From Burkholderiales bacterium (GTDB lineage: Bacteria > Pseudomonadota > Gammaproteobacteria > Burkholderiales > SG8-39): 64,000 nucleotides of DNA. Location: the NCBI GenBank assembly GCA_026416295.1, contig JAOAFL010000016.1, positions 373 to 64,372 of the forward strand, given 5' to 3'. This document shows, piece by piece, positions 10,461 to 22,951 of this stretch. The number at the start of each line of letters is the position of its first letter. The stretch's first letter is position 1. Made by a program: the position numbers and the translations under genes. Below the pieces are notes generated by a model, which had not been told where the DNA came from, searched no databases, and saw only the letters and a program-made list of their open reading frames with translations.

Positions 10461-10793
10461 TTACCCCGGCGGCTGAAGCACTATGATCGCGGTGCCGGCG
10501 AGGGCGACGGCGACGCCTGCGGCGTCCCAGACGGTCGGCCGGATGCCTTCGATCGTCCACAGCCACGCGATCGCGATCGCGATGTAGACCGCGCCATAGG
10601 CGGCGTACGTGCGACCGGCGGCCGCAGGATAGAGGGTAAGCAGATACGCAAAGAGCGCAAGGCACGCCGCCGCGGGGACGAGCAACCAGGCACTTTTCCC
10701 CTGCCGCAGCCACAGGTATACGAAATAGCAGCCTGCGATCTCGGCGATCGCGGTGACGGTGAAAAGCCCTGCGGCGAACGCGAGCCCCCTCAT
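10461..10793 (-). CDS. ynfA: YnfA family small multidrug-resistance-type membrane protein
   Basis: [10 protein letters not shown] and [13 protein letters not shown] motifs, 110 aa with 4 TM. ATG overlaps the cadR stop. Confidence 0.88.
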
Positions 10794-11224
10794 CGGGCGC
10801 CCTCGACGTGGCAGGCGCAGGCCTCGCCCTGCGCCGCGTGAATCAGCTCCTGCAGAATCCCGCAACCGGCGATGCGCTGGCCGTTCGCGCACTGGGCGCG
10901 CAGCGCCTCGAGCTGCTGCTCCAGGCGCTCGAGCGCCTGCCGACGTGCCCGCACACGCGCAAGGTGCGCCTCCACCAGCTGGTTCACCTCGTCGCAGGCG
11001 ACACTCGCCTCGCGCGCGAGCGCGAGCACCCGCCGGATATCGGCGAGCGCCATGTCGAGCGAGCGGCAGTGGCGAACGAACCGCAGCCGCTCGAGGTGCG
11101 CCGGGCCGTAGGCGCGATAGCCCGAGGGCGTTCGCGCGGGAGCATCGAGCAGCCCCTCGCGCTCGTAGTAGCGCACCGTCTGCACGTCCACGCCCGCCCG
11201 GCGGGCGAGTTCACCGATCCGCAT
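10790..11224 (-). CDS. cadR: Cd(II)/Pb(II)-responsive MerR family regulator
   Basis: MRIGELA...[21 protein letters not shown], metal-binding Cys residues, C-terminal GEACACH. Confidence 0.88.
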
Positions 11225-11241
11225 ACGCGTCCTCCGAAGGC

Positions 11242-11272
11242 TTGACTTTATACCGGCTACAGGGCCTGCAAT
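11242..11272 (+). promoter_or_regulatory. MerR-type promoter with 19-bp spacer and CadR/PbrR-like operator
   Basis: TTGACT (11242-47), 19 nt spacer, TGCAAT (11267-72). Imperfect dyad ACTTTATAC-CGG-CTACAGGGC. Confidence 0.8.
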
Positions 11273-11279
11273 GCGGGCG

Positions 11280-11909
11280 ATGAGCGACGCCTGTTGCGAT
11301 GTCCCTGACCCGGGCGCCTCGGGGCGGCACTACCGGCGCATCCTCTGGATCGCCCTGCTCGCGAACGCGACGATGTTCTTCGTCGAGCTTGCGGCGAGCC
11401 TGCACTCGGGTTCCTCGGCGCTCGCGGCCGACGCCGTGGACTTCCTCGGCGACGCCGGAAATTACGGGGCGAGCCTTGCGGCGCTCGCGGCAGGCGGCGC
11501 CTGGGTGAGCCGCGTCGCGCTCGCCAAGGGCGTCGCGATGATCGCCTTTGGCGCCGGCGCGCTCGGCTACGCAGCGGCTCGCGCGCTCTCGGGCGCACCG
11601 CCCGAGCCGGTGACGATGGGCACGGTGGCGCTCGCCGCGCTCGGTGTCAACGTCGGCGTCGCTGCGCTTCTTTTCCGCTTCCGGGGCGGCGATGCGAACA
11701 TGCGCTCGGTGTGGCTCTGCAGCCGCAACGACGCGATCGGCAACCTCGCGGTGATCGGCGCGGCCGCCGGCGTCTGGCAAACCGTTACGGTGTGGCCGGA
11801 TGTCGCGGTCGCCGCGGTCCTTGCGGCGCTCGGCCTGTCCTCGGGCCTTTCGGTCGCACGGCACGCGCGCAGGGAGCTCGCCGCCGCGCCGCCCGCGGCG
11901 CACGCGTGA
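11280..11909 (+). CDS. Cation diffusion facilitator (short CzcD/CzcE-like, no C-terminal domain)
   Basis: SSALAADAVDFLGD and DANMRSVWLCSRNDAIGN motifs, N-terminal CC. Divergent from cadR. Confidence 0.87.
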   Translation: MSDACCDVPDPGASGRHYRRILWIALLANATMFFVELAASLHSGSSALAADAVDFLGDAGNYGASLAALAAGGAWVSRVALAKGVAMIAFGAGALGYAAARALSGAPPEPVTMGTVALAALGVNVGVAALLFRFRGGDANMRSVWLCSRNDAIGNLAVIGAAAGVWQTVTVWPDVAVAAVLAALGLSSGLSVARHARRELAAAPPAAHA

Positions 11910-12024: not shown

Positions 12025-12489
12025 ATGGCGAGCACGATGGCGAACACCGCCTCTTCCTCGCAGAAGCCGCAGGCGGCATTGGCGGGCGAGATCGCTCGCC
12101 GCATCGCAGCCGTGCTCGCCGAGCGGCCGGAAGTGCTCGAAGCGTATCTGTTCGGCTCGCAGGGCACCGGGCGCGCGCAGGCGCACAGCGACGTGGACGT
12201 CGCGGTGTATCTCGACGAATCGGTGCCGGGCGCAAGCGGTTGGGGGCGCGCCGCAGAGCTCGCAAGCCTCGTCATGTCCGCGCTCGGGCGAAACGACGTG
12301 GATGTGGTGGTGCTCAACCGCGCCCCGCCGCTCCTTTACCACCGGGTGCTGCGCGACGGCGTGCGCGTCTTCTCGCGCGACCTGCGCGCGACCACCACCC
12401 GCGAAGGCTATGCGCTTTCGCGCTATTGCGATTTCGTCCCGCAGCTTGCGAAGGCGCGCGAGGCCCGACGCAGGGCACAGGGCCGATGA
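12025..12489 (+). CDS. Minimal nucleotidyltransferase (MntA-type antitoxin)
   Basis: LFGSQGTGRAQAHSDVDVAV (GS-x10-DxD) and VDVVVLN; followed by a HEPN gene. Confidence 0.85.
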   Translation: MASTMANTASSSQKPQAALAGEIARRIAAVLAERPEVLEAYLFGSQGTGRAQAHSDVDVAVYLDESVPGASGWGRAAELASLVMSALGRNDVDVVVLNRAPPLLYHRVLRDGVRVFSRDLRATTTREGYALSRYCDFVPQLAKAREARRRAQGR

Positions 12490-12919
12490 CCCAGGGCCGC
12501 CCCGACCCGCAGGTGCTGCGCAGGCATCTGGCGGCGTTGCGCGAGGCGCTTTCGCACCTTGGCCGCTATGGCGGGCGCACCGCGGCGGAGCTGCGCGCCG
12601 ACACCGGTCTGCGCTGAACGATCGGGCGGGGACTGCAGCTCGCCGTCCAGAACGTGTCGACATCGCGACGCATGTCGCCGCGGCGCAGGGACGCGATGCG
12701 CCCGATTACGCGAGCGCGATCGATCGCCTCGCCGAGGCGGGCGCGGTCGAGCCGGCGCTCGCAGCGCGGCTGCGCCCGATCGCAGGATTCCGCAAGGTGC
12801 TGGTGCACGGGTATCTGGGCGTGGACCTCGCGATCGTCGCAAAGGTGCTCGCCTACGATCTCGCCGATCTCGAGGCGTTCGCGGCGCAGGTCGAGTCGTA
12901 TCTGGAGCAAGTGCGCTGA
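12486..12919 (+). pseudogene. HEPN/DUF86 (HepT-type) toxin, disrupted
   Basis: In-frame TGA at 12615-17 (LR*TIGRGLQL, where homologs read roughly LRWxxERGLQL). 1-nt frameshift near 12656 (NV/DIATH). R-x4-H motif reads RKVLVH. Confidence 0.8.
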
Positions 12920-12963
12920 GCCGCTGCGCTCGGACCGCGCGGCCGCCCGCCGGTGTCTATCGG

Positions 12964-14325
12964 CTACGCGACGCGAAACACCGCCGCAAGTCCCGATTCC
13001 TGGTGCTCGAGCACGTGGCAGTGAAACATCCACAGCCCCGGGTTTTCGGCGACGAAGGCGATCTCGGCGCGGCTGCGCGCAAAGAGAAGCACGGTGTCGG
13101 CCCATTCTCGGCGGGGATTCGGCCGGCCGTCGCGCGAAAGTACGCGAAACACGTGGCCGTGCAGATGGATCGGGTGATGCCAGACGGTGTCGTTGACAAG
13201 CTCCAGCACCTGCGAGCTGCCGAGCGGAAGCGACAGTAGCGGCTCGTGCGCGTGGCCCGAAACGGCGCGACCGTTCACCGTCCAGGCGATGCCGCGCATG
13301 GCAAGCTCCCGGGTCAAGCCGCCCCTTGCGCCGCCACCGAAGCGAACGACGTGTCGCTCGGCGCGTGCAGGATCGGGCTCCGGCACCGGGTTCGGTGAAA
13401 GCGCCTTCGGCGCGCCGCGCGCTCGCCCCCGGGCACCGCCCTTCGCATAGTGCAGATCGAGGAGCCGATACGCCTCGCGGGGATAGAAATCGTCCACGAC
13501 GCGATACGAGCTGCCCGGCTCGCCGGTGCAGTCGAGGAGGAGGTCTGCGCGCATGCCCGGGCCGAGGACGATGCGTCCGCCCTCGGGCCGGAAAGGCTCG
13601 AGCGGATGGCCGTCGAGCGCGATCACCCACGGTTCGTGCGCCTCGAACCGCAGAGCGAAGATACGCGCGGTTGCGGCGTTGACGAGCCGCAGGCGCAGCC
13701 GTTCGCCTGCGCGCACCTCGAACGCCTCCGTCACCCGGCCGTTCACGGTCACCGTGTTTCCGATCCGGCCGGCGTGGCTCGCGTCGAAGAAGTTGCCGAA
13801 GTCTTCGCGGATACGCGCCTCGCGATCGAGCCGCCAGTCGCCGAGCATCCAGACGAGATCGCGGTCCGCTTCGGGTGGATCGCGCTCCTCGACGACGAGC
13901 GCGCCGTAGAGGCCGCGTCCGACCTGCTCGGGGCTCGCAAGATGCGGGTGATACCAGAAGGTGCCGGCATCGGGCAGGTCGAACTCGTACAGGAAGCGAC
14001 CCCCTATCGCGATCGGCGGCTGCGTGAGATGCGGAACGCCGTCCATCGGGTTCGGAAGCCTGATGCCGTGCCAGTGCACGGTGGTCTCCTGCGGCAGGCG
14101 GTTCTCGACGAGGATGCTCAAGCGCTCGCCCTGGCGGTAGCGCAGCTCCGGGCCCGGTACCGTGCCGTCATAAGCCCACACCTCGGTGTCCGGATAGCCC
14201 GAGCCCGCGATCGCCGCTCGGGCCGGTGCGGCGCGAACGAGGCGCGGCGCGCTCGCCCGCGCCGCGCGCGCACGCGGCAGTAGCGCGAGCGCCGCGCCGG
14301 CCGCGAGGAATTCCCTGCGCCGCAT
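12964..14325 (-). CDS. Tat-exported three-domain multicopper oxidase (laccase-like)
   Basis: RRREFL signal; HWHG, WYHPH, HPIHLHGH, HCHVLEH motifs. Confidence 0.92.
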   Translation of the reverse strand: MRRREFLAAGAALALLPRARAARASAPRLVRAAPARAAIAGSGYPDTEVWAYDGTVPGPELRYRQGERLSILVENRLPQETTVHWHGIRLPNPMDGVPHLTQPPIAIGGRFLYEFDLPDAGTFWYHPHLASPEQVGRGLYGALVVEERDPPEADRDLVWMLGDWRLDREARIREDFGNFFDASHAGRIGNTVTVNGRVTEAFEVRAGERLRLRLVNAATARIFALRFEAHEPWVIALDGHPLEPFRPEGGRIVLGPGMRADLLLDCTGEPGSSYRVVDDFYPREAYRLLDLHYAKGGARGRARGAPKALSPNPVPEPDPARAERHVVRFGGGARGGLTRELAMRGIAWTVNGRAVSGHAHEPLLSLPLGSSQVLELVNDTVWHHPIHLHGHVFRVLSRDGRPNPRREWADTVLLFARSRAEIAFVAENPGLWMFHCHVLEHQESGLAAVFRVA

Positions 14326-14333
14326 GATCCGCG

Positions 14334-14675
14334 CTACCTGCCCTGCACTTCGATCGCCGTCACCGTGTAGGCGCCGCCGAGCTTTTCTGCCGCAAAGCGC
14401 ACCTTGTCGCCCGGCTTCACGCGATCGAGCAGCGCCGGATCCTTCACCTGAAAGACCATCGTCATCGCCGGCATGTCGAGCGAAGCGATCGGACCGTGGC
14501 GGATCGTGAGCTTCTTCGCCTCCCTGTCCACGCGACGGATTTCGCCCTCGGCAAGCGGTGCTCCCTGCGCCTCGGCGCCGCCGCGGTGCGCGGTATGGCC
14601 CCCTTGCGTCTGTGGCTGGGCGAAGGCTGGCGCCGCGATAAGCGCGGCGAGCGCGACTGCGATTCGCGTTTTCAC
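14334..14675 (-). CDS. CusF-like periplasmic copper chaperone
   Basis: Signal peptide; TIRHGPIASLDMPAMTMVF. GTG start chosen from GAGGAGG spacing. Confidence 0.87.
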   Translation of the reverse strand: MKTRIAVALAALIAAPAFAQPQTQGGHTAHRGGAEAQGAPLAEGEIRRVDREAKKLTIRHGPIASLDMPAMTMVFQVKDPALLDRVKPGDKVRFAAEKLGGAYTVTAIEVQGR

Positions 14676-14685
14676 GTCCACCTCC

Positions 14686-15186
14686 TCACTTGACGGTGAT
14701 CCTGCCGACCATGCCGGCCTCGAAATGCCCCGGGATCAGGCAGCCGTAATGGAATTCGCCGGCGCGGGTGAACTGCCAGTGAAGCGTTGCGCTCTTTCCG
14801 GGCGCGACGTGCGCCATCCAGGGCTCGTCGTGCTCCATTGCCGGATGCTTGCGCATGAGTTCGGCGTGCGCCTTCAGCTCCTCGAGCGTGCCGAGCACCA
14901 TCTCGTGCATCTGGCGCCCGGAGTTTCTCACCACGAACTTCACGTTCTCGCCGCGGCGGAATTCGAGCGTCGCCGGAACGAAGCGCATCGTGTCGAGCAT
15001 CTCGATCTTCACCGAGCGCGCGGGCTTCTTCGGATCGCCCGGCCGTCCGAAGGGCTTTTCCTCGTCGGCCTGCGCGGCCCTGTGGCCGCTTTTCTTTCCG
15101 TGCGCTGGCTCGCCATGGGCGAGCGCCGCAGGCGCGGCGGCGGCAATGAACACTGCGAGCAACACTTTTGCGCGCTGCATGGACAT
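14686..15186 (-). CDS. Periplasmic cupredoxin (CopI-like)
   Basis: Signal peptide, His-rich N-terminus, HEMVLG, MEHDEP, type-1 Cu site CLIPGHFEAGM. Confidence 0.87.
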   Translation of the reverse strand: MSMQRAKVLLAVFIAAAAPAALAHGEPAHGKKSGHRAAQADEEKPFGRPGDPKKPARSVKIEMLDTMRFVPATLEFRRGENVKFVVRNSGRQMHEMVLGTLEELKAHAELMRKHPAMEHDEPWMAHVAPGKSATLHWQFTRAGEFHYGCLIPGHFEAGMVGRITVK

Positions 15187-15197
15187 CGGACCTCCTT

Positions 15198-16598
15198 TTA
15201 ATGGTTGTGGCCGCCCGCCGGCTTGCGGGCGCGCAGAATCCGTCCGGCGGCGGCTCGCTCCGGTGCTTCGGCCGCGGGCACTCCCCCGTCGCGTTCGGCA
15301 AGCGGCGGCGCGCCGGTCCATTCGTACGCCACGGTGCCGGGCGGATGCCGGTACCAGCCGGGGTCGCGGTAGTCGTCGCGCGCAAGCCCCTCGCGCACCT
15401 TGACGACGCTGAACATGCCGCCCATCTCAAGCGGCCCGAAGGGCCCGGTGCCGGTCATCATCGGCAGCGTGTTCTCCGGAAGCGGCATCTCCATCTCGCC
15501 CATGTCGGCCATGCCGCGCTCGCCCATCACCATGTAGTCGGGAACGAGGCGCAGGATCTTCTCGGCCAGACCGCGCTGGTCCACGCCGATCATGGTGGGC
15601 ACGTCGTGCCCCATCGGGTTCATGACGTGGTGCGACTTGTGGCAGTGGATCGCCCAGTCGCCGGGCGCATCCGCCACGAACTCGATCGCGCGCATCTGGC
15701 CGACCGCCACATCCACCGTCGTCTCCGGCCAGCGCGCGCTCTTCGGTACCCAGCCGCCGTCGGTGCCGGTCACCTCGAACTCGTGGCCGTGCAGGTGGAT
15801 CGGGTGGTTGGTCATCGTGAGGTTGCCGATGCGGATGCGCACCCGGTCACCGCGGCGAACGACGAACGGGTCGATGCCGGGAAAGACGCGCGAGTTCCAC
15901 GCCCAGAGGTTGAAGTCGAGCATGGTGGCGACGCGCGGGGTGTAGGCGCCCGGCTCGATGTGGAACGCGTTGATGAGGAAGACGAAGTCGCGGTCGACGC
16001 GCATCACGGCCGGATTCTTCGGGTGCACGACGATGAAGCCCATCATGCCCATTGCCATTTGCACCATTTCGTCCGCGTGCGGGTGGTACATGAAGGTGCC
16101 CGACTTCCGCATCTCGAACTCGTACACGAAGGTCTTGCCGGCCGGGATGTGCGGCTGAGTGAGCCCGCCGACCCCGTCCATGCCGTTCGGAAGCAGCACG
16201 CCGTGCCAGTGGATCGTGGTGTGCTCCGGAAGCCGATTGGTGACGAAGATCCTCAGGCGATCGCCCTCGACGCACTCGATCGTGGGGCCCGGCGACTGGC
16301 CGTTGTAGCCCCAGAGGTTCGCCTTCATGCCGGGGGCGAGTTCGCGCACCACCGGTTCGGCGACGAGGTGAAACTCCTTCCAGCCGTCCTTCATGCGCCA
16401 GGGAAGCGTCCAGCCGTTCAACGTCACGACCGGCTGGTACGGCCGGCCGTTCGGCGGCGCAAGCGGCGGCTGCGTGCCGGGGCTCGCCATGCTCGGAGCT
16501 TCGGGAAGCGCAGCGAGCGCCGCGCGCGAGACGAGCGAAGCGCCGAAGAAGCCCGCGGCGGCGCCCGCGCCGCGGAGGAAAGCTCTGCGCGACGTCAT
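15198..16598 (-). CDS. Tat-exported two-domain multicopper oxidase with Met-rich C-terminal extension
   Basis: SRRAFL signal; HWHG, MYHPH, HPIHLHGH, HCHKSHHVMNPM; Met-rich tail. Confidence 0.88.
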   Translation of the reverse strand: MTSRRAFLRGAGAAAGFFGASLVSRAALAALPEAPSMASPGTQPPLAPPNGRPYQPVVTLNGWTLPWRMKDGWKEFHLVAEPVVRELAPGMKANLWGYNGQSPGPTIECVEGDRLRIFVTNRLPEHTTIHWHGVLLPNGMDGVGGLTQPHIPAGKTFVYEFEMRKSGTFMYHPHADEMVQMAMGMMGFIVVHPKNPAVMRVDRDFVFLINAFHIEPGAYTPRVATMLDFNLWAWNSRVFPGIDPFVVRRGDRVRIRIGNLTMTNHPIHLHGHEFEVTGTDGGWVPKSARWPETTVDVAVGQMRAIEFVADAPGDWAIHCHKSHHVMNPMGHDVPTMIGVDQRGLAEKILRLVPDYMVMGERGMADMGEMEMPLPENTLPMMTGTGPFGPLEMGGMFSVVKVREGLARDDYRDPGWYRHPPGTVAYEWTGAPPLAERDGGVPAAEAPERAAAGRILRARKPAGGHNH

Positions 16599-16609
16599 CG
16601 CCCGTCTCC

Positions 16610-18019
16610 TCAGTGTCCGGCTTCGCCGTCCGGTGCGCCGCGGGGCGCGGGCGACGCCGCGCGCGGCTCGCTTCGCACGCGGATCGAAAGGGTCGCATCG
16701 AGTTCGGCCTCGGCCAGCCAGAAATCGCGTTTCGCCTCGAGCGCGGCCTTGACCGCAGCGATCTGCCCGCGCGCATCGGAAAGGAGTTCGAACACGCTCG
16801 CGAGCATGCCGTTGTAGCGAAGGAGCACTTCCTCGGAGATCCGTTTTCTGAGCGGCACCAGCTCGTCGCGGTAGTGGCGCGCAAGGTCCCAGGCGCTGCG
16901 ATAGGCGCCGTAGGCTTCGCGCACCTCGGAGCGCGCCTGGATCGCGACATCCGCCAGCCGCTCGGCCGCCTGGCGGTACTGCGCCTCGGCCCGCGCGACG
17001 CGCGCCTTTCCCCAGTCGAAGATCGGGATCTCGAGCGCAAGCACATGGCCGTACGCGAACGGATCGTGGCCCTCCCTGGTGCGCGCGCGGCTGAATTCGA
17101 ACGCGCTCACAAGGCGCGTCGCCCCGGAAAGGCCGAGCGCCTCGGCAAGCCACTCCAGTTCCCGACGCGCGGCCCGGATGTCGAGCCTTTGCTCGATCGC
17201 GCGCCGCTCGAGGTCCTCCGACGACCGCGGCGTCTCCGGCAGATCGGGAAGCCGCTCGGGCAGGCGAAACGCGAGGTCTTCGCCCCACAGGCCAAGCACC
17301 CGGGCAAGGCGCTCGCGCCCGGCGCTCGCCGCATGCCTTGCGCGCGCAAGGTTTGCGGCGGCTTCGGCGTAGAACGCCTGCTCGCGCATGTGGGCGAGCT
17401 TCGGGAGATTGCCCGCCGCCGCCATGCGGCGCGCAAGCTCCGCCGCCGCTTCGGCCGAGTCGCGGACTCGCTCCGCATGGCGAAGCGTCTCCTCGGCAGC
17501 GACCGCGGCGATCCACGTGCGGCGCGCCTCGAGCGCGACGCGAAACACCTGCGCGGCGACCTCGGCTTGCACGCGCTCGAAGCGGCGCGCCTCCATCCTC
17601 TTGCGAAGCGGCACCAGCAGCAAGCCGAGGATGTCGAAGCCGAAGCTTTCCTCGACCTTGGAAACCTCGCCGCCGTAGGTGGTGCGTAGCGCGTGGAGCC
17701 GCAGGTTCGGGCCGCTTGTCGCCTGAACGAGGTCGGCCTCGGCGATGCCGAGTTCGGCGTAGGTCGCCTGAAGCGCCGGGCTGTTGAGAAGCGCGATTCG
17801 CACCGCGTCCTCCGCCGAAAGCGGCCGGGAAAGCAGCTCGCGCACCGCCGCGCGCACGCTCTGCGCGTCTTCGTCCGTCCTCTGCCAGCGAAGCTCGACG
17901 CCGAGCCGCTCGCGGGCGAGTTCCTGCACGGGGCCGAAACCGCCGTCTTCGGAAAAGCTCGCGCAGCCGGCGAGCGCGAGCGCCGTCGCCGAGGCCGCGG
18001 TCCTCGCTCGCCATCTCAT
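16610..18019 (-). CDS. TolC/CusC-like outer-membrane channel lipoprotein
   Basis: Lipobox LAGC, AVRIALLNSPALQA, LEIPIFDWG, two OEP-like helical repeats. Confidence 0.87.
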   Translation of the reverse strand: MRWRARTAASATALALAGCASFSEDGGFGPVQELARERLGVELRWQRTDEDAQSVRAAVRELLSRPLSAEDAVRIALLNSPALQATYAELGIAEADLVQATSGPNLRLHALRTTYGGEVSKVEESFGFDILGLLLVPLRKRMEARRFERVQAEVAAQVFRVALEARRTWIAAVAAEETLRHAERVRDSAEAAAELARRMAAAGNLPKLAHMREQAFYAEAAANLARARHAASAGRERLARVLGLWGEDLAFRLPERLPDLPETPRSSEDLERRAIEQRLDIRAARRELEWLAEALGLSGATRLVSAFEFSRARTREGHDPFAYGHVLALEIPIFDWGKARVARAEAQYRQAAERLADVAIQARSEVREAYGAYRSAWDLARHYRDELVPLRKRISEEVLLRYNGMLASVFELLSDARGQIAAVKAALEAKRDFWLAEAELDATLSIRVRSEPRAASPAPRGAPDGEAGH

Positions 18020-18315
18020 TTGCGCTCTCCCTGGCCTTCCTGCGCGGCGGGCTTGCCGGCGGGCGCGGCGCCGCGACCGGGCGGCGAGCCGGACACGTGT
18101 CCTGCGTGGCCGCCCAGGCGCCGCACCTCGTCGTTCGCCTCGCGCCAGCGGGCGAGTTCCGGCTCCGAGTAGGGACGGTAGTCCTCGAACGCCGACCTAT
18201 GGACGGGGGGCTTTGTGCCCGCCGCCGGGTCGGCGGGATGGGGCCGCGCGACCTCTCGCGCGGCAGCGCCCGCCGCGAAAGCCGCGGCGAGCGCAAAAGC
18301 GATCGTTCTGCGCAT
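18016..18315 (-). CDS. Small secreted hypothetical protein of the copper cluster
   Basis: Signal peptide, SAFEDYRPY...WREANDEV...GGHAGH; GGAGG RBS; stop overlaps the TolC-like ATG. Confidence 0.75.
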   Translation of the reverse strand: MRRTIAFALAAAFAAGAAAREVARPHPADPAAGTKPPVHRSAFEDYRPYSEPELARWREANDEVRRLGGHAGHVSGSPPGRGAAPAGKPAAQEGQGERK

Positions 18316-18390
18316 CTTTGCCTCCGAGTGCGAACAGGTGCACGCTTGCGCGTGCGGGACGGCGCAACTTGCGCCGGCTTCTGTCAGCGC

Positions 18391-18792
18391 TCAGAGACCG
18401 AGCGGAGGTCGCTCCGGATGATCGGGCACGAAACCGACGTTCGGCCGCGCACCGAAAGGAATGCGATCGGAATCGGACACCCCAGCAAGGCGCGGCGCTT
18501 CGGCGACCGGCGCAAAGGTCGTGCCGCTACAGTGCTTCGCGCAAAAGCCGCAGTCGTGGCCGAGCGAACCGGAACCCTCTTCGCCGTGATGCGCCGCGGC
18601 TCCGGAACCGGGCTCGGATCCCGTTTCGCCGTGGTGTGCAGAGACGCGATCGCTCGCCCCGGGCTTTTGCGCATGCGAAGGCGCGTCGTGGCCGGCGCCA
18701 GCGCAGGAGAGCGCGGCGACCGAGGCCGCCGCACGGATCGGCAGCCCCGCGACGAGCACGGCGAGAAGAACGAGCCGCACAGCGCGTCTCAT
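18391..18792 (-). CDS. CopL/CutF/DUF2946-like metal-binding leader protein
   Basis: Signal peptide, HHGE repeats, CGFCAKHC, C-terminal PERPP. First ORF of the periplasmic Cu operon. Confidence 0.7.
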   Translation of the reverse strand: MRRAVRLVLLAVLVAGLPIRAAASVAALSCAGAGHDAPSHAQKPGASDRVSAHHGETGSEPGSGAAAHHGEEGSGSLGHDCGFCAKHCSGTTFAPVAEAPRLAGVSDSDRIPFGARPNVGFVPDHPERPPLGL

Positions 18793-18888
18793 GCCCGCGA
18801 TCGTAGCACGGCGACCGCGCGCCGATCTCGACCGAGGCGCAGCGCGTCCGCCACAGCGCCCCCGTCGAGGAACCTTGCGCTTGCTGCG

Positions 18889-21081
18889 CTAACGCTCCGG
18901 CTTCCAGCGCGAAAGGAGGAGCGCGTTCGTGACGACGCTCACGCTGCTCGCCGCCATCGCGGCGCCGGCGAACACCGGAGAAAGCATGCCGAGCGCGGCG
19001 AGCGGAATGCCGACAGCGTTGTAGACGAACGCCCAGAAGAGGTTCTGGCGGATCTTCCTCCACGTGCGCCGCGAGACGTCGATCGCCGAGGCGACGAGCC
19101 GCGGGTCCGGCCGCATCAGCGTCAGCCCCGCGGCGTGCATCGCGGCGTCGGTCCCGGAGCCCATCGCGATGCCGAGGTCGGCGGCGGCGAGCGCAGGCGC
19201 GTCGTTGATGCCGTCGCCGACCATCGCCACCGCCCCCCGCTCGCGGCGAAGCGCCTCGACCGCGCGCGCCTTTTCCTCCGGCAGGACCTCGGCGCGATAG
19301 TCCCGGATGCCGAGGCGCGCGGCGACCGCGGCGGCGACCGCGCGGCTGTCGCCGGTGATCATCACCGTTTCGATTCCGCGCCGCGCGAGCGCCGCGACCG
19401 CCTCGGCGGCTTCGGGCTTCACCTCGTCGCCGATCGCAAAGACGGCGAGCGCCCGGGCGGGCGCGCGAAGTTCGGCGAGCCACGCGACCGTCAGGCCTTC
19501 GCTCTCCCACTTTGCCGCGCGCGCCTCGAGCGGCGCGGTATCCACCGCGAGTTCCCGCATCCAGCGGCCGGAGCCGATGGCGAGCCTGCGCCCGCCGACC
19601 TCGGCTTCGACGCCTCGGCCGGGGACAGCCCGGACTCGCCCGGCCGAGGGCACCGCGAGCGAGTCCTTTTTCGCCGCGGCGACGATCGCGCGCGCAAGCG
19701 GATGTTCGCTTGCCTGCTGCACGGCCGCCGCCATCGCGAGCGCCTCGCGGCGCGCGCCTTCGCCGCCTGCGGACGCTTCGCCCGGCGCGACCTCGATCGC
19801 AAGCAGCGCCGGCTTTCCGCGGGTGAGCGTTCCGGTCTTGTCGAACGCCACGACGCGCACGCGATGCGCGACTTCGAGCGCCTCGGCGTCCTTGACGAGG
19901 ATGCCGTGGCGCGCGGCCACCCCGGTGCCCGCGATCACCGCCGCAGGCGTGGCGAGACCCAGCGCGCACGGGCAGGCGATGACGAGCACCGCGACCGCGT
20001 CGAGAAGCGCCCGCTCCCAGTCGCCGCTCGCGAGCCCCCAGGCGAGAAGCGTCGCCGTGCCGATCGCGAGCACCGCCGGCACGAATACCGCGCTCACGCG
20101 GTCGACGAGCCGCTGGATCGGCGCCTTCTTCGCCTGCGCGGTCTCCACCAGTTCGACGATGCGCGCAAGCTGCGACTGCGCACCCACCGCGGTCGCCCGG
20201 ACGACGATCAAACCCTCGGCGTTCACCGCGCCGCCGATCACGCGATCGCCCGGGCCGCGCGCGACCGGCAGCGACTCGCCGGTGAGAAGCGACTCGTCCA
20301 CATGCGTCGCCCCTTCGACGATCACGCCGTCGGCGGCGATCCGCTCGCCGGGCCGAACGACGATCAGATCGCCGGCGGTCACCTCTTCGATCGGAAGCTC
20401 GATTTCGGTCTCGCCCCTTCGCACGCGTGCGCGCTCGGGCCTGAGCGCCGCGAGCGCCCGGATCGCTTCGCTCGCCCGGCGCTTTGCGCGTGCCTCCAGC
20501 CACTTTCCGAGCAGCACCAGCGTGATCACCGCCGCGCCGGCCTCGAAATAGAGGTGCGGCTGCGGCTCGCCCCAGTGCCGGAGCATCAGGTAGGTCGAAA
20601 GGCCCCAGGCGGCGCTCGTGCCGAGGGCAACGAGCAGGTCCATGTTCCCGGTGCCTGCGGCGAGCGCCTTTGCGCCCGCGCGGTAAAAGCGCGCCCCCAG
20701 CCAGAACTGGACCGGCGTCGCGAGCGCGAACTGAAGCCACGCAGGCAGCGTCCAGCCGGGCGCGAAGGGCGCAGCGAGCATCGGAAGAAAAAGCGGCAGC
20801 GTGAGCGCGGCGGCGACCGCGACCAGCCAGCCGGCCGACGCGCGCGCCTCGTGCGCGCGCTCCGGCGCGAGCCTCGCCTCGTACCCCGCGCGGCGCACCG
20901 CCTCGACGAGCGCCTGCGGGTCGGCGCCTGCGGAAAGCGTCACGCTCGCGGTTTCGGTCGCGAGATTCACTTCGGCGCTCGCCACACCGGGAACCGCTCT
21001 CAGCGCCTTCTCCACCCGCGCGACGCAGGCCCCGCAGGTCATGCCCTCGATCGGCAGTCGGATGCGGATGCTCGTTTCCAT
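18889..21081 (-). CDS. copA: Cu(I)-translocating P1B-type ATPase
   Basis: GMTCGAC HMA domain, [33 protein letters not shown] and MAASS motifs. Confidence 0.95.
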
Positions 21082-21179
21082 GCGGCGCGGCGGCCTCGGT
21101 CGGGGTAAAGTCTGCCACGCTCCGCGAGCGGCTCGCGCCCGGCGCGAGCGCAAAGGCGCGGCGGACGAAAGGAGCGGCA

Positions 21180-21377
21180 ATGATCGAATTCAGCGTTCCG
21201 GACATGACCTGCGGGCATTGCGCGAGCGCGATCACCCAGGCGGTGAAGGCGCTCGATCCGACGGCCAAGGTGGAGATTTCGCTGGAGGCGCACCGCGTTC
21301 GGGTCGAGACGAAGGCGGCCGCCGAGGCGCTCGAGCGCGCGATCCGGGAGGCCGGCTACAGCCCGGTCGCGGCCTGA
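21180..21377 (+). CDS. copZ: Copper chaperone (HMA domain)
   Basis: DMTCGHC motif, 65 aa, AAGGAG RBS. Confidence 0.9.
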
Positions 21378-21388
21378 GGCGGCGCGCC

Positions 21389-22951
21389 TCAGGCGGGCAT
21401 GCGCCGGCCGAGGTCGCGCAAGAGCTCGCGCGCGCAATTGTGGCCGGGCGCGCCGGTGACGCCCCCGCCCGGGTGCGCGCCCGAGCCGCAGAGGTACAGG
21501 CCCGGCACCGGCGTTCGGTAGTTCGCCCAGCCGAGCAGCGGGCGCGCTGACCAGAGCTGATCGGGCGCGAGCGCCCCGTGGAAGATGTCGCCTGCGGTGA
21601 GCCCGAACTCGCGCTCGAGGTCGGCGGGCGACAGCGCGCTGTAGCCGACGACGCTTTCGCGAAAGCCGGGCGCGAACGATTCGACGACGTCGAAGATGCG
21701 CTCGATCGCCTCGTCCCTGCGCGCGGCCCAGTCGGCCTGCGGCGCGAAATGCTGGCAGAAGAGGCTCGCAACGTGCGCGCCCTTCGGCGCGAGCGTGTCG
21801 TCCACGGTGCTCGGCACGAGCATTTCGACGATCGGGCGACGCGCGATTCCGTCTGCGCGCGCGTCGCGCCAGGCGCGCTCCATGTATTCGAGCGAGGGCG
21901 CGAGGATGATGCCGGAGGCGAGATGCGGCCCGGGCTCGGGCAGGCAGGCGAAGCGCGGTGCGCGCGAAAGCGCGACGTTCATGCGAAAGCTCGCCGAGCC
22001 GCAGCGGTAGCGCTCGATGCGCGCGACGAACTCGGGCGCGAGCGCCGCGCGATCGACGAGCTGCAGGAAAAGCCGCTTCGGATCGACGTTCGCGACGATC
22101 GCGCGCGCGGCGAATTCGCGTCCGTCGGCGAGCTGCACGCAGCCGCGCGCGATGCGCGCGACCGGCGCCTCGCACTCGATCTCGACGCCGAGCCGCCGCG
22201 CCTCGCGCACGAGCGCCTCGGCAAGCGCCCCCATGCCGCCCGCGACGTGGCCCCAGGCGCCGCGCCGCCCGTTCACCTCGCCGAAGGCGTGGTGCAGCAG
22301 CACATAGCCGGTGCCCGGCTGCGCCGGGCTCGCGTAATTGCCGACCACCGCGTCGAAACCGAACACCGCCTTGATCGGCTCCGACTCGAACCAATGGTCG
22401 AGAAAATCGGCGGCGCTGCCGAAAAAGAGCGCGAGGAGGTCGCGCCGCGCCTCCATGTCGAGGCGGCGCAGCCGGCCCGCGGCGCGCAACGCGCGAACCG
22501 CGTCGGCGAGTCCTCCGCCGACGTTCGGCGGGGTCTCGAGCGCGAGCGCCCGCAAGGCGTCCGCGACGCGGCCGAGCGCGTCGTAGTACGCCGGCAACCG
22601 CTCGGCGTCGCGCGCGGAAAAGCGCGCAAGTTCCCGCTGCGTCGCGGAAACGTCCGGCCCCACGCGCAGGAAGCCGTCTTCGAGCGGCAGGAAGTTCGCG
22701 ATCGGCCGCTCGAGGATGCGCAGGCCGTGCTCGACAAGGCGCAGGTCGCGAATCACCTTCGGCTGAAGCAGGCTCACCGTATAGGCGGCGACCGAGTTGC
22801 GAAAGCCGGGATAAAACTCTTCGGTCGCGACGCAGCCGCCGGGGCGCGCGCGCCGCTCGAAGACGCGCACCTTCAGGCCCGCCCGGGCGAGGTAGCAGGC
22901 GCACACGAGGCCGTTGTGGCCGGCGCCGACGACGATCGCGTCGAGATTCAC
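21389..22951 (-). CDS. Phytoene-dehydrogenase-like NAD(P)/FAD oxidoreductase (COG1233)
   Basis: [46 protein letters not shown] overlaps the glmS stop. Confidence 0.87.

Follow-up and report, generated by a model that had tools for sequence, protein, structure and literature searches.

A short open reading frame (ORF) stands at the head of a group of copper genes in the window, the 64,000-nt stretch of a Burkholderiales contig analysed here, and the question it raises is whether translation of this ORF controls the genes behind it, and through which bases of the mRNA. According to a preliminary description of the locus, copper bound to the nascent, exported chain would modulate a ribosome stall at C-terminal prolines, and the codons of these prolines would themselves form the anti-Shine-Dalgarno (anti-SD) sequence masking the start of the next gene. 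The outline of that model is in accordance with all the comparative evidence presented below, and is the same as the mechanism published for CutF, but its assignment of the anti-SD to the proline codons did not stand. In our view, the leader is likely to be a CutF-type, copper-induced pause-and-unmask switch, with the anti-SD located at its last codons and stop codon.

The leader ORF and its copper operon

Judged from sequence comparison, the ORF is a conserved CutF/CopL-like leader, related to DUF2946, with the following elements:

18391..18792, minus strand: CutF/CopL-like (DUF2946-like) leader ORF of 133 aa (ORF translation, HMM scores, homologs, Atlas neighbours)
18724..18792, minus strand: predicted Sec signal peptide, residues 1-23 (hydropathy and a conserved pattern with invariant Pro18, by eye)
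18529..18552, minus strand: putative metal-binding motif C81-x2-C84-x2-H87-C88 (C81 and C84 kept in at least 90% of the 26 leaders aligned)
18403..18411, minus strand: putative pause site Arg128-Pro129-Pro130, coded CGA CCT CCG

The length of the ORF, its cysteines (residues 30, 81, 84 and 88) and the PERPP placed about 42 residues past the last of them agree with the preliminary description; PERPP occupies residues 126-130, with Pro130 lying 42 residues after C88, and is followed by LGL and the stop codon. The Sec-type signal claimed there fits as a sequence pattern judged by eye, with a basic n-region, a hydrophobic stretch (11-residue hydropathy up to 3.2 in the hydropathy plot) and AxA at residues 21-23. 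The two AHHGE repeats do occur, at residues 52 and 67, but they are not conserved beyond the window, and they were ruled out as a functional motif since homologs keep only a variable His-rich linker.

Homologs were collected by profile searches, each of which retrieved the top-scoring loci only. A profile of seven leaders had matches in 29 of 101 genomes, the bacterium's own included. With a profile of 26 leaders, matches were obtained in 131/301 genomes sampled from the order and in 23/301 from the class. The near set holds 29 loci (L001 and L002 were excluded as duplicates of L004 and L005); for alignment A2, comprising 26 leaders, L004, whose N-terminus is frameshifted in its assembly, and L023 and L025, near copies of L021, were also omitted. 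The distant set holds 42 of 54 loci, after leaving out one near duplicate (L061), four loci without a clear downstream start (L056, L069, L076, L082) and seven without a C-terminal PP motif (L081, L084, L086, L089, L095, L098, L101). Downstream start codons were chosen by eye among SD-bearing candidates.

Conservation of RPP in orthologs, on which the preliminary description had made its model depend, is complete in the aligned leaders: Arg128, Pro129 and Pro130 are invariant in 26/26, as is Pro18, and Cys30, Cys81, Cys84, Pro123 and Leu131 are conserved in at least 90%. Arg directly precedes PP in 29/29 near and 36/42 distant loci, and the residue two before the first Pro is E, D or Q in the near set and varied, never R, in the 42 distant loci. 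The full CxxC is absent from 3/29 near homologs. In the 26 near loci that have it, the second Cys precedes the first Pro by 45 residues in 21 and by 44 in five, a fixed spacing, while the part of the leader preceding the Cys motif varies between 65 and 89 residues.

The CopL/DUF2946 search proposed in the preliminary description gave nearly full-length matches below both cut-offs. The best match was to CopL_fam (NF033807; 27.4 bits, E 4e-6, almost full length, cut-off 40), followed by DUF2946 (PF11162; 18.8 bits, E 0.003, profile positions 2-114 of 117, gathering cut-off 23.7). Among the 26 leaders scanned, three pass the DUF2946 cut-off and 16 match it at E <=0.1, none passes the 40 bits of CopL, and the weak matches to CzcI (NF045614) found in ten are far below its 100-bit cut-off, which none passes. 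ESM Atlas neighbours of the leader score 0.96-0.97, and some are annotated as DUF2946 or CzcI.

As far as the published CutF-like rules were compared, the leader appears to follow them, though it stays under the Pfam and NCBIfam cut-offs. It has 133 aa where at most 150 are allowed, and its PP, to be found within 15 residues of the C-terminus, is followed by LGL-stop. The same-strand downstream gene, expected within 1000 nt and typically metal-related, comes after a 75-nt spacer and opens a series of copper genes. For the signal, where the rule is SignalP-based, the n/h/c pattern and hydropathy fit by eye. Of the two features used for DUF2946/CruR leaders, CxxC at a conserved spacing was found (44-45 residues in 26/26 near loci having CxxC), and in place of RAPP the leader carries ERPP. 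Likewise, its motif, (D/E)RPP-L, differs from the R-(A/G)-P-P core of RAPP/RGPP arrest peptides (SecM/ApdP type).

Several homologs present particular structures. Five distant ones (L081, L084, L086, L098, L101) end in RP-x-W or RPK, not RPP, and are CzcI-like; they also have a -10 box near the start. One genome holds tandem leaders about 1.2 kb apart (L083 and L100, G489:C2), each with its own predicted tail/SD helix. In the closest relative (L111, G020:C18:72500-87500), the leader N-terminus, copA, the first oxidase and cusF contain frameshifts, which are probably assembly indels because an intact leader of 89% identity exists (P0002).

The genes around the leader are the following:

18889..21081, minus strand: Cu P1B-ATPase (copA), upstream, ending 96 nt before the leader (TIGR01511 over cut-off)
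18016..18315, minus strand: 99-aa hypothetical protein, probably exported, the putative first target gene (no Pfam or NCBIfam family; Atlas clusters unnamed)
16610..18019, minus strand: outer-membrane efflux protein (OEP), TolC/CusC-like (PF02321)
15198..16586, minus strand: multicopper oxidase 1 (PF07732/PF07731/PF00394)
14686..15183, minus strand: CopI-like cupredoxin (PF00127; CopI models below cut-off)
14334..14681, minus strand: CusF-like periplasmic Cu/Ag chaperone (PF11604)
12964..14325, minus strand: multicopper oxidase 2, a lineage-specific addition (Pfam)

A divergent copZ-like gene also lies upstream of the leader, and it is from this gene context that copper would be taken as the leader's metal. 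Downstream, the stop of the 99-aa gene and the next start overlap by 4 nt, and the further gaps are 23, <=14, 4 and 8 nt. The six-gene operon of the preliminary description is present in the window, but in most relatives it has five genes, the second oxidase having a full-length orthologue in only one of ten relative loci (G020); it is about 38% identical to oxidase 1 over the best segment. The 99-aa protein has a tblastn match in 9/10 relative loci, in eight of them right after the leader, and a plasmid search with it gave no match. It carries a conserved RPDPAD motif and belongs to no family, and in 4/29 near loci the leader is joined directly to an OEP lipoprotein gene. In the 42 distant loci, the downstream family is OEP in 16, CusF in five, CusB/HlyD in four, oxidase in three, DUF2231 in one, and none in 13.

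The preliminary description also pointed to a missing regulator beside the cluster. This holds for the bacterium's own genome (94% complete), where no CueR or CusS orthologue exceeds the cut-off (for CusS-type kinases, none among 22 matches), but it is specific to this lineage, as CueR was found over cut-off upstream of the leader in 8/10 relative loci and as the adjacent gene in seven of those. The only CueR-model match in the own genome is a CadR/PbrR-like gene (10793-11224), below cut-off. It encodes a MerR regulator (148.4 bits, cut-off 151.45) and is transcribed divergently from a short gene for cation efflux (CDF), the pair spanning 10793-11909; the genome gave no other MerR-family match. 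The closest relative, G020, lacks cueR like the window. Compared with the CueR-type box consensus, the copA/copZ spacer (21082-21179) has a GC palindrome, without the paired CueR-type boxes and promoter hexamers found in L105, L106 and L113, which keep cueR; the spacer of G020 is the same as that of the window. The regulator gene cueR seems to have disappeared from this lineage along with its operator sites. CsoR was considered as the missing copper regulator and rejected: the genome has two PF02583 genes, both of which adjoin, to judge by eye from translations, TusA/DsrE/rhodanese-like genes and are therefore probably of the sulfur type. Just past the end of the copper operon, on the plus strand (12025-12919), lie a minimal nucleotidyltransferase gene (PF18765) and a probable small partner ORF, which together resemble an MNT-HEPN toxin-antitoxin pair.

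Codon usage and predicted start and fold of the leader transcript

The leader is predicted to have its own promoter and a leaderless or near-leaderless transcript, on the basis of one motif:

18800..18808, minus strand: predicted extended -10 box TG-c-TACGAT, placed 7 nt ahead of an SD-less leader ATG (sequence and homolog comparison)

A -10-like hexamer occurs 4-12 nt before the leader start, mostly with no SD, in 26/28 near loci (at 6-7 nt in 21; L004 was not counted) and in 37/50 distant ones. At downstream-gene starts it was found in 1/29 and 1/42, and at random positions in 3.4% and 7.3% (near and distant, respectively). The near leader starts had been fixed before the pattern was noticed. 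A consensus scan of the minus strand from 12700 to 21500 detected no full sigma-70 promoter and no intrinsic terminator.

The codons of RPP are also biased. CGA encodes the motif Arg in 13/29 near loci, compared with 9/145 other Arg codons of the leaders, and in 11/36 compared with 12/148 in the distant set; CCT is used for motif Pro in 28/58 versus 41/239 elsewhere in the leaders (near) and in 25/84 versus 66/388 (distant). In eight genes of the window, these rare codons make up 4% (CGA) and 2% (CCT). We read CGA and CCT at RPP as slow decoding, and the bias may also have a role at the RNA level.

Folding of the region and inspection of its covariation, suggested in the preliminary description, gave four RNA elements:

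18381..18398, minus strand: anti-SD arm, with the last codons, the stop and the following bases (pair probabilities 0.92-1.0, compensatory changes, cognate complementarity)
18360..18376, minus strand: spacer hairpin 1 (fold; 97.5% of cells paired over 21 distinct homologs)
18340..18355, minus strand: spacer hairpin 2 (fold; 94.3% of cells paired over 21 distinct homologs)
18321..18325, minus strand: SD (GGAGG) for the following gene, masked in the ground state according to the prediction (unpaired probability 0.00-0.01)

The spacer between the leader stop and the next ATG (18315) is indeed 75 nt long, and both hairpins described earlier were recovered, with pair probabilities of 0.95-1.0 except for one pair. 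Over 141 nt, the folding energy of the region is -62.6 kcal/mol, with z -2.6 relative to 200 shuffles. In this fold the SD is masked by the 3′ end of the leader: it pairs with GUCUCUGAG (18398-18390, made up of the final two codons, the stop and one further base) in a 9-bp helix with p 0.98-1.0, and this core, paired with 18320-18328, is extended by pairing of 18388-18381 with 18330-18337. Among homologs, the SD is paired (p>0.5) to the segment following PP in 21/29 near and 24/42 held-out distant loci, the same level not being reached in 8/29 and 18/42.

On an alignment of 22 of the 29 near loci made with MAFFT (A3; the seven most divergent spacers were omitted), RNAalifold chose the tail/SD helix and both hairpins unprompted. 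In the consensus structure 90.6% of cells are paired and 9/18 pairs have two-sided changes, counts for a structure that came from the same alignment; an example within the SD helix is U-A in 11 versus C-G in eight loci. With 500 shuffles, neither the fraction of paired cells nor the score for covariation was attained once; controls with a slid structure had 31-58% of cells paired. Cognate duplexes of the post-PP segment and SD region are more stable than non-cognate ones with z -4.9 in the near set, whose loci are kin and whose statistics are overstated by it, and z -12.3 in the distant set; for the upstream leader segment, no significant preference for its own SD was seen in either set. In both sets, complementarity scanned with a 12-nt sliding window was highest at offsets of +9 to +12, counted from the first Pro codon, and the windows concerned span +9 to +24. 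When the SD-side segment of each locus was shuffled as a control, only 8/29 near and 22/42 distant loci had a pairing above the 95% level. The conserved anti-SD is thus predicted to lie 9-24 nt downstream of the first Pro codon, at the last codons and stop of the leader; the mRNA helix characteristic of the CutF mechanism, in which bases immediately 3′ of the prolines cover the next SD, is found here by prediction and covariation.

In two loci (L016, L017), the anti-SD bases and their SD-side partner are nearly identical to each other, with the stop codon differently placed (tails LA and LALLR), which suggests that the leader tail is constrained as RNA, not as peptide. A search of 18200-18950 against Rfam gave no known structured RNA at E <=1.

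Ribosome position and possible readings

The preliminary description had the Pro-Pro codons themselves as the anti-SD. Their complementarity is real, CCTCCG (18408-18403) matching CGGAGG (18326-18321) over 6 bp, and this duplex of the window ranks first among 29 SD segments tried; CCT is enriched at the Pro codons, and two of 42 distant loci (L094, L096) fold in this way. However, the pairing has a predicted probability of about 3e-6 in the window and occurs in 0/29 near loci. These codons show no cognate preference (near set, p 0.82 and 0.31; distant set, p 0.18 and 0.20), and in the alignment 59% of cells are paired, with 177/500 shuffles as high; covariation supports only the helix after PP. 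A ribosome mask reaching only the end of the Pro codons also leaves the cost of opening the SD unreduced, at 14.5 versus 12.4 kcal/mol. We regard the proline codons as very improbable anti-SD, and they could be a minor alternative register.

Masks that extend farther do lower this cost. They were set by the usual footprint lengths of the ribosome. From 12.4 kcal/mol in the free RNA of the window, SD opening falls to 4.9 with a mask to +15 and to 0.9 with a mask to +18 from the first Pro codon, and stays at 12.4 with a mask ten codons upstream. A mask at the prolines cuts the cost by at least 2 kcal/mol in 16/29 near and 20/42 distant loci, compared with 3/29 and 2/42 for the upstream control. 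A terminating ribosome leaves 3.6 kcal/mol in the window, and near-locus medians are 4.7 (stop) versus 5.0 (prolines). The same helix is opened about equally by a ribosome at the stop codon, and the RNA data consequently do not separate a copper-dependent pause from plain coupling.

It is therefore conceivable that ribosomes finishing the leader melt the stop-codon helix irrespective of copper and the next gene initiates at a fixed basal level, with the exported leader serving as a periplasmic metal-binding peptide and copper control coming from elsewhere. Besides the overlap of the anti-SD with the stop, where the terminating-ribosome mask works about as well as that at the prolines, such coupling would suit a leader motif that is not RAPP/RGPP and the presence of CueR upstream in most relatives. 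Yet it leaves unexplained the invariant RPP, the fixed 44-45-residue spacing and the rare motif codons; the leader has its own predicted promoter; and CutF, of the same layout, requires the Cys motif, the prolines and the signal for copper induction, according to PMC9973294 and bioRxiv 10.1101/2025.02.05.636593. We consider such coupling unlikely. Even less probable, in our estimation, is control at the level of transcription, where ribosome position would set Rho-dependent termination or mRNA decay, the SD helix would be secondary, and the response could have another sign or another metal (Ag, Zn) than that of CutF. Without translation, the first gene would lie open to Rho; the scan detected no intrinsic terminator on the minus strand, so that termination, if it occurs, would have to depend on a factor. 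CusF and CusC-like proteins handle Ag too. Such a mechanism is known for CruR (PMC9426467). Against it, the 75-nt spacer (162 nt in CruR) is almost fully paired and presumably a poor Rho-loading site, the covarying partner of the leader tail is the SD itself, and copper repression would have the wrong sign for downstream genes that detoxify copper.

Under the preferred reading, a copper-induced pause that unmasks the SD, events could proceed as follows. The transcript would begin at the leader's own -10 box, the motif being conserved and the exact start predicted, and in the resting mRNA a three-way junction of the two hairpins, closed by the covarying anti-SD/SD helix, is predicted to hide the SD of the 99-aa gene. 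The leader would be exported co-translationally, as in CutF; with the Pro codons at the P and A sites, the CxxCxxHC motif, 44-45 residues away, would be just across the membrane, a position suggested by CutF. By analogy with CutF we infer that copper binds and the ribosome stalls: copper on the exported Cys motif would lengthen the pause at RPP. This pause would probably be of the EF-P-sensitive diproline type, with rare codons aiding it, rather than an arrest of the RAPP type; because the motif here is (D/E)RPP-L and not RAPP/RGPP, the strong arrest, resistant to EF-P, that PMC12992588 describes would not be transferable. In the computed geometry the paused ribosome would cover or melt the +9 to +18 arm and free the SD, and the tight gene junctions, together with polarity, could carry the signal along the operon.

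Relation to known copper leaders

The mechanism is already known from CutF, and no new kind of regulation is opened by this leader. What is added here is the family-level covariation, the predicted leaderless promoter, the fixed Cys-Pro spacing and the rare RPP codons; a prior description of these features, or of a common xRPP plan, was not found in the literature searched, most subscription papers being outside its coverage. It is possible, if not quite probable, that xRPP leaders form a large CutF-like branch (131/301 genomes of the order, 23/301 of the class) built on one plan, with a leaderless transcript from its own promoter, a 44-45-residue tether by which the Cys motif reaches the periplasmic mouth of SecY, an RPP pause that the rare codons CGA and CCT tune, and an anti-SD in the last codons and stop, located under the leading edge of the paused ribosome, that covaries with an SD at a distance of 60-180 nt. 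In the lineage studied here, apparently without cueR and its operators, the leader would then be the only dedicated copper sensor left. Sequence evidence that the xRPP branch has SD masking by the leader 3′ end as its common output comes from the covariation over 71 loci; this branch heads copper efflux and oxidase operons across Burkholderiales and in some other Gammaproteobacteria (GTDB sense). The analysis also names the exact bases of the anti-SD, correcting the Pro-codon idea, and adds two testable features, the leaderless start and the rare codons at the pause.

Among the known leaders, CzcI (NF045614) has a similar signal and Cys pattern, but it lacks the C-terminal proline motif and heads czcCBA, as stated in PMC9973294. 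CopL of Xanthomonas/Stenotrophomonas, described in the same paper as cis-acting, needed for copper-regulated copA expression and possibly isofunctional with CutF, is the best HMM match over nearly the whole length (NF033807, 27.4 bits), whereas all 26 leaders scanned remain under its cut-off and the downstream operon is different. CruR (Bp2923) of Bordetella pertussis, a DUF2946 (PF11162) protein, likewise combines CxxC and a C-terminal diproline at conserved spacing and is encoded by the first gene of a copper operon. PMC9426467 presents it as acting via Rho, independently of the signal, and repressing copper uptake when copper is present. In PMC12992588, where the RAPP/RGPP arrest motif is defined and CruR arrest was followed by toeprint, the arrested ribosome has the two CruR Pro codons at its P and A sites. 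CruR differs in having RAPP instead of xRPP, a 45-nt 5′ UTR and 162-nt spacer instead of a predicted leaderless start and 75 nt, and a Cys-Pro spacing three residues longer by the same measure. In the present leader, moreover, it is the SD that is masked, and the targets serve detoxification.

For CutF of Rhodobacter capsulatus (cutFOG), the leader-pause and SD-unmasking mechanism has been published (PMC9973294; bioRxiv 10.1101/2025.02.05.636593). In PMC9973294, 5,334 CutF-like proteins are listed, with OEP as the commonest neighbour; the mechanism is established there for one alphaproteobacterial gene and its use across the thousands of CutF-like proteins is left open, and the available methods report no RNA covariation analysis. 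The preprint describes EF-P dependence of CutF and loss of induction with PAP, and mentions the term leaderless a single time, in a general passage of its introduction. Both CutF and the leader studied here are small and signal-bearing, with a Cys motif about 45 residues before the C-terminal Pro motif; the 44-45 residues found here are close to the 45 discussed for CutF and CruR. In both, an anti-SD just 3′ of the prolines masks the next SD. According to the primer given in PMC9973294, the bases mutated in CutF lie one base after the stop and occupy +16 to +19 counted from the penultimate Pro codon, inside the +9 to +24 found here. Copper-detoxifying genes, including an oxidase and a chaperone, follow in both cases, and the expected sign is copper induction. 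On the other hand, CutF is alphaproteobacterial and has CxxxC and GPPP-RL, while the Burkholderiales leader has CxxCxxHC and ERPP-L. The stem-loop of cutF is formed in a spacer of 40 bp (PMC8456105), whereas here the anti-SD, with last codons and stop, closes a predicted three-way junction over 75 nt, and the first target would be a small exported protein of no family, followed by OEP, oxidase, cupredoxin and CusF.
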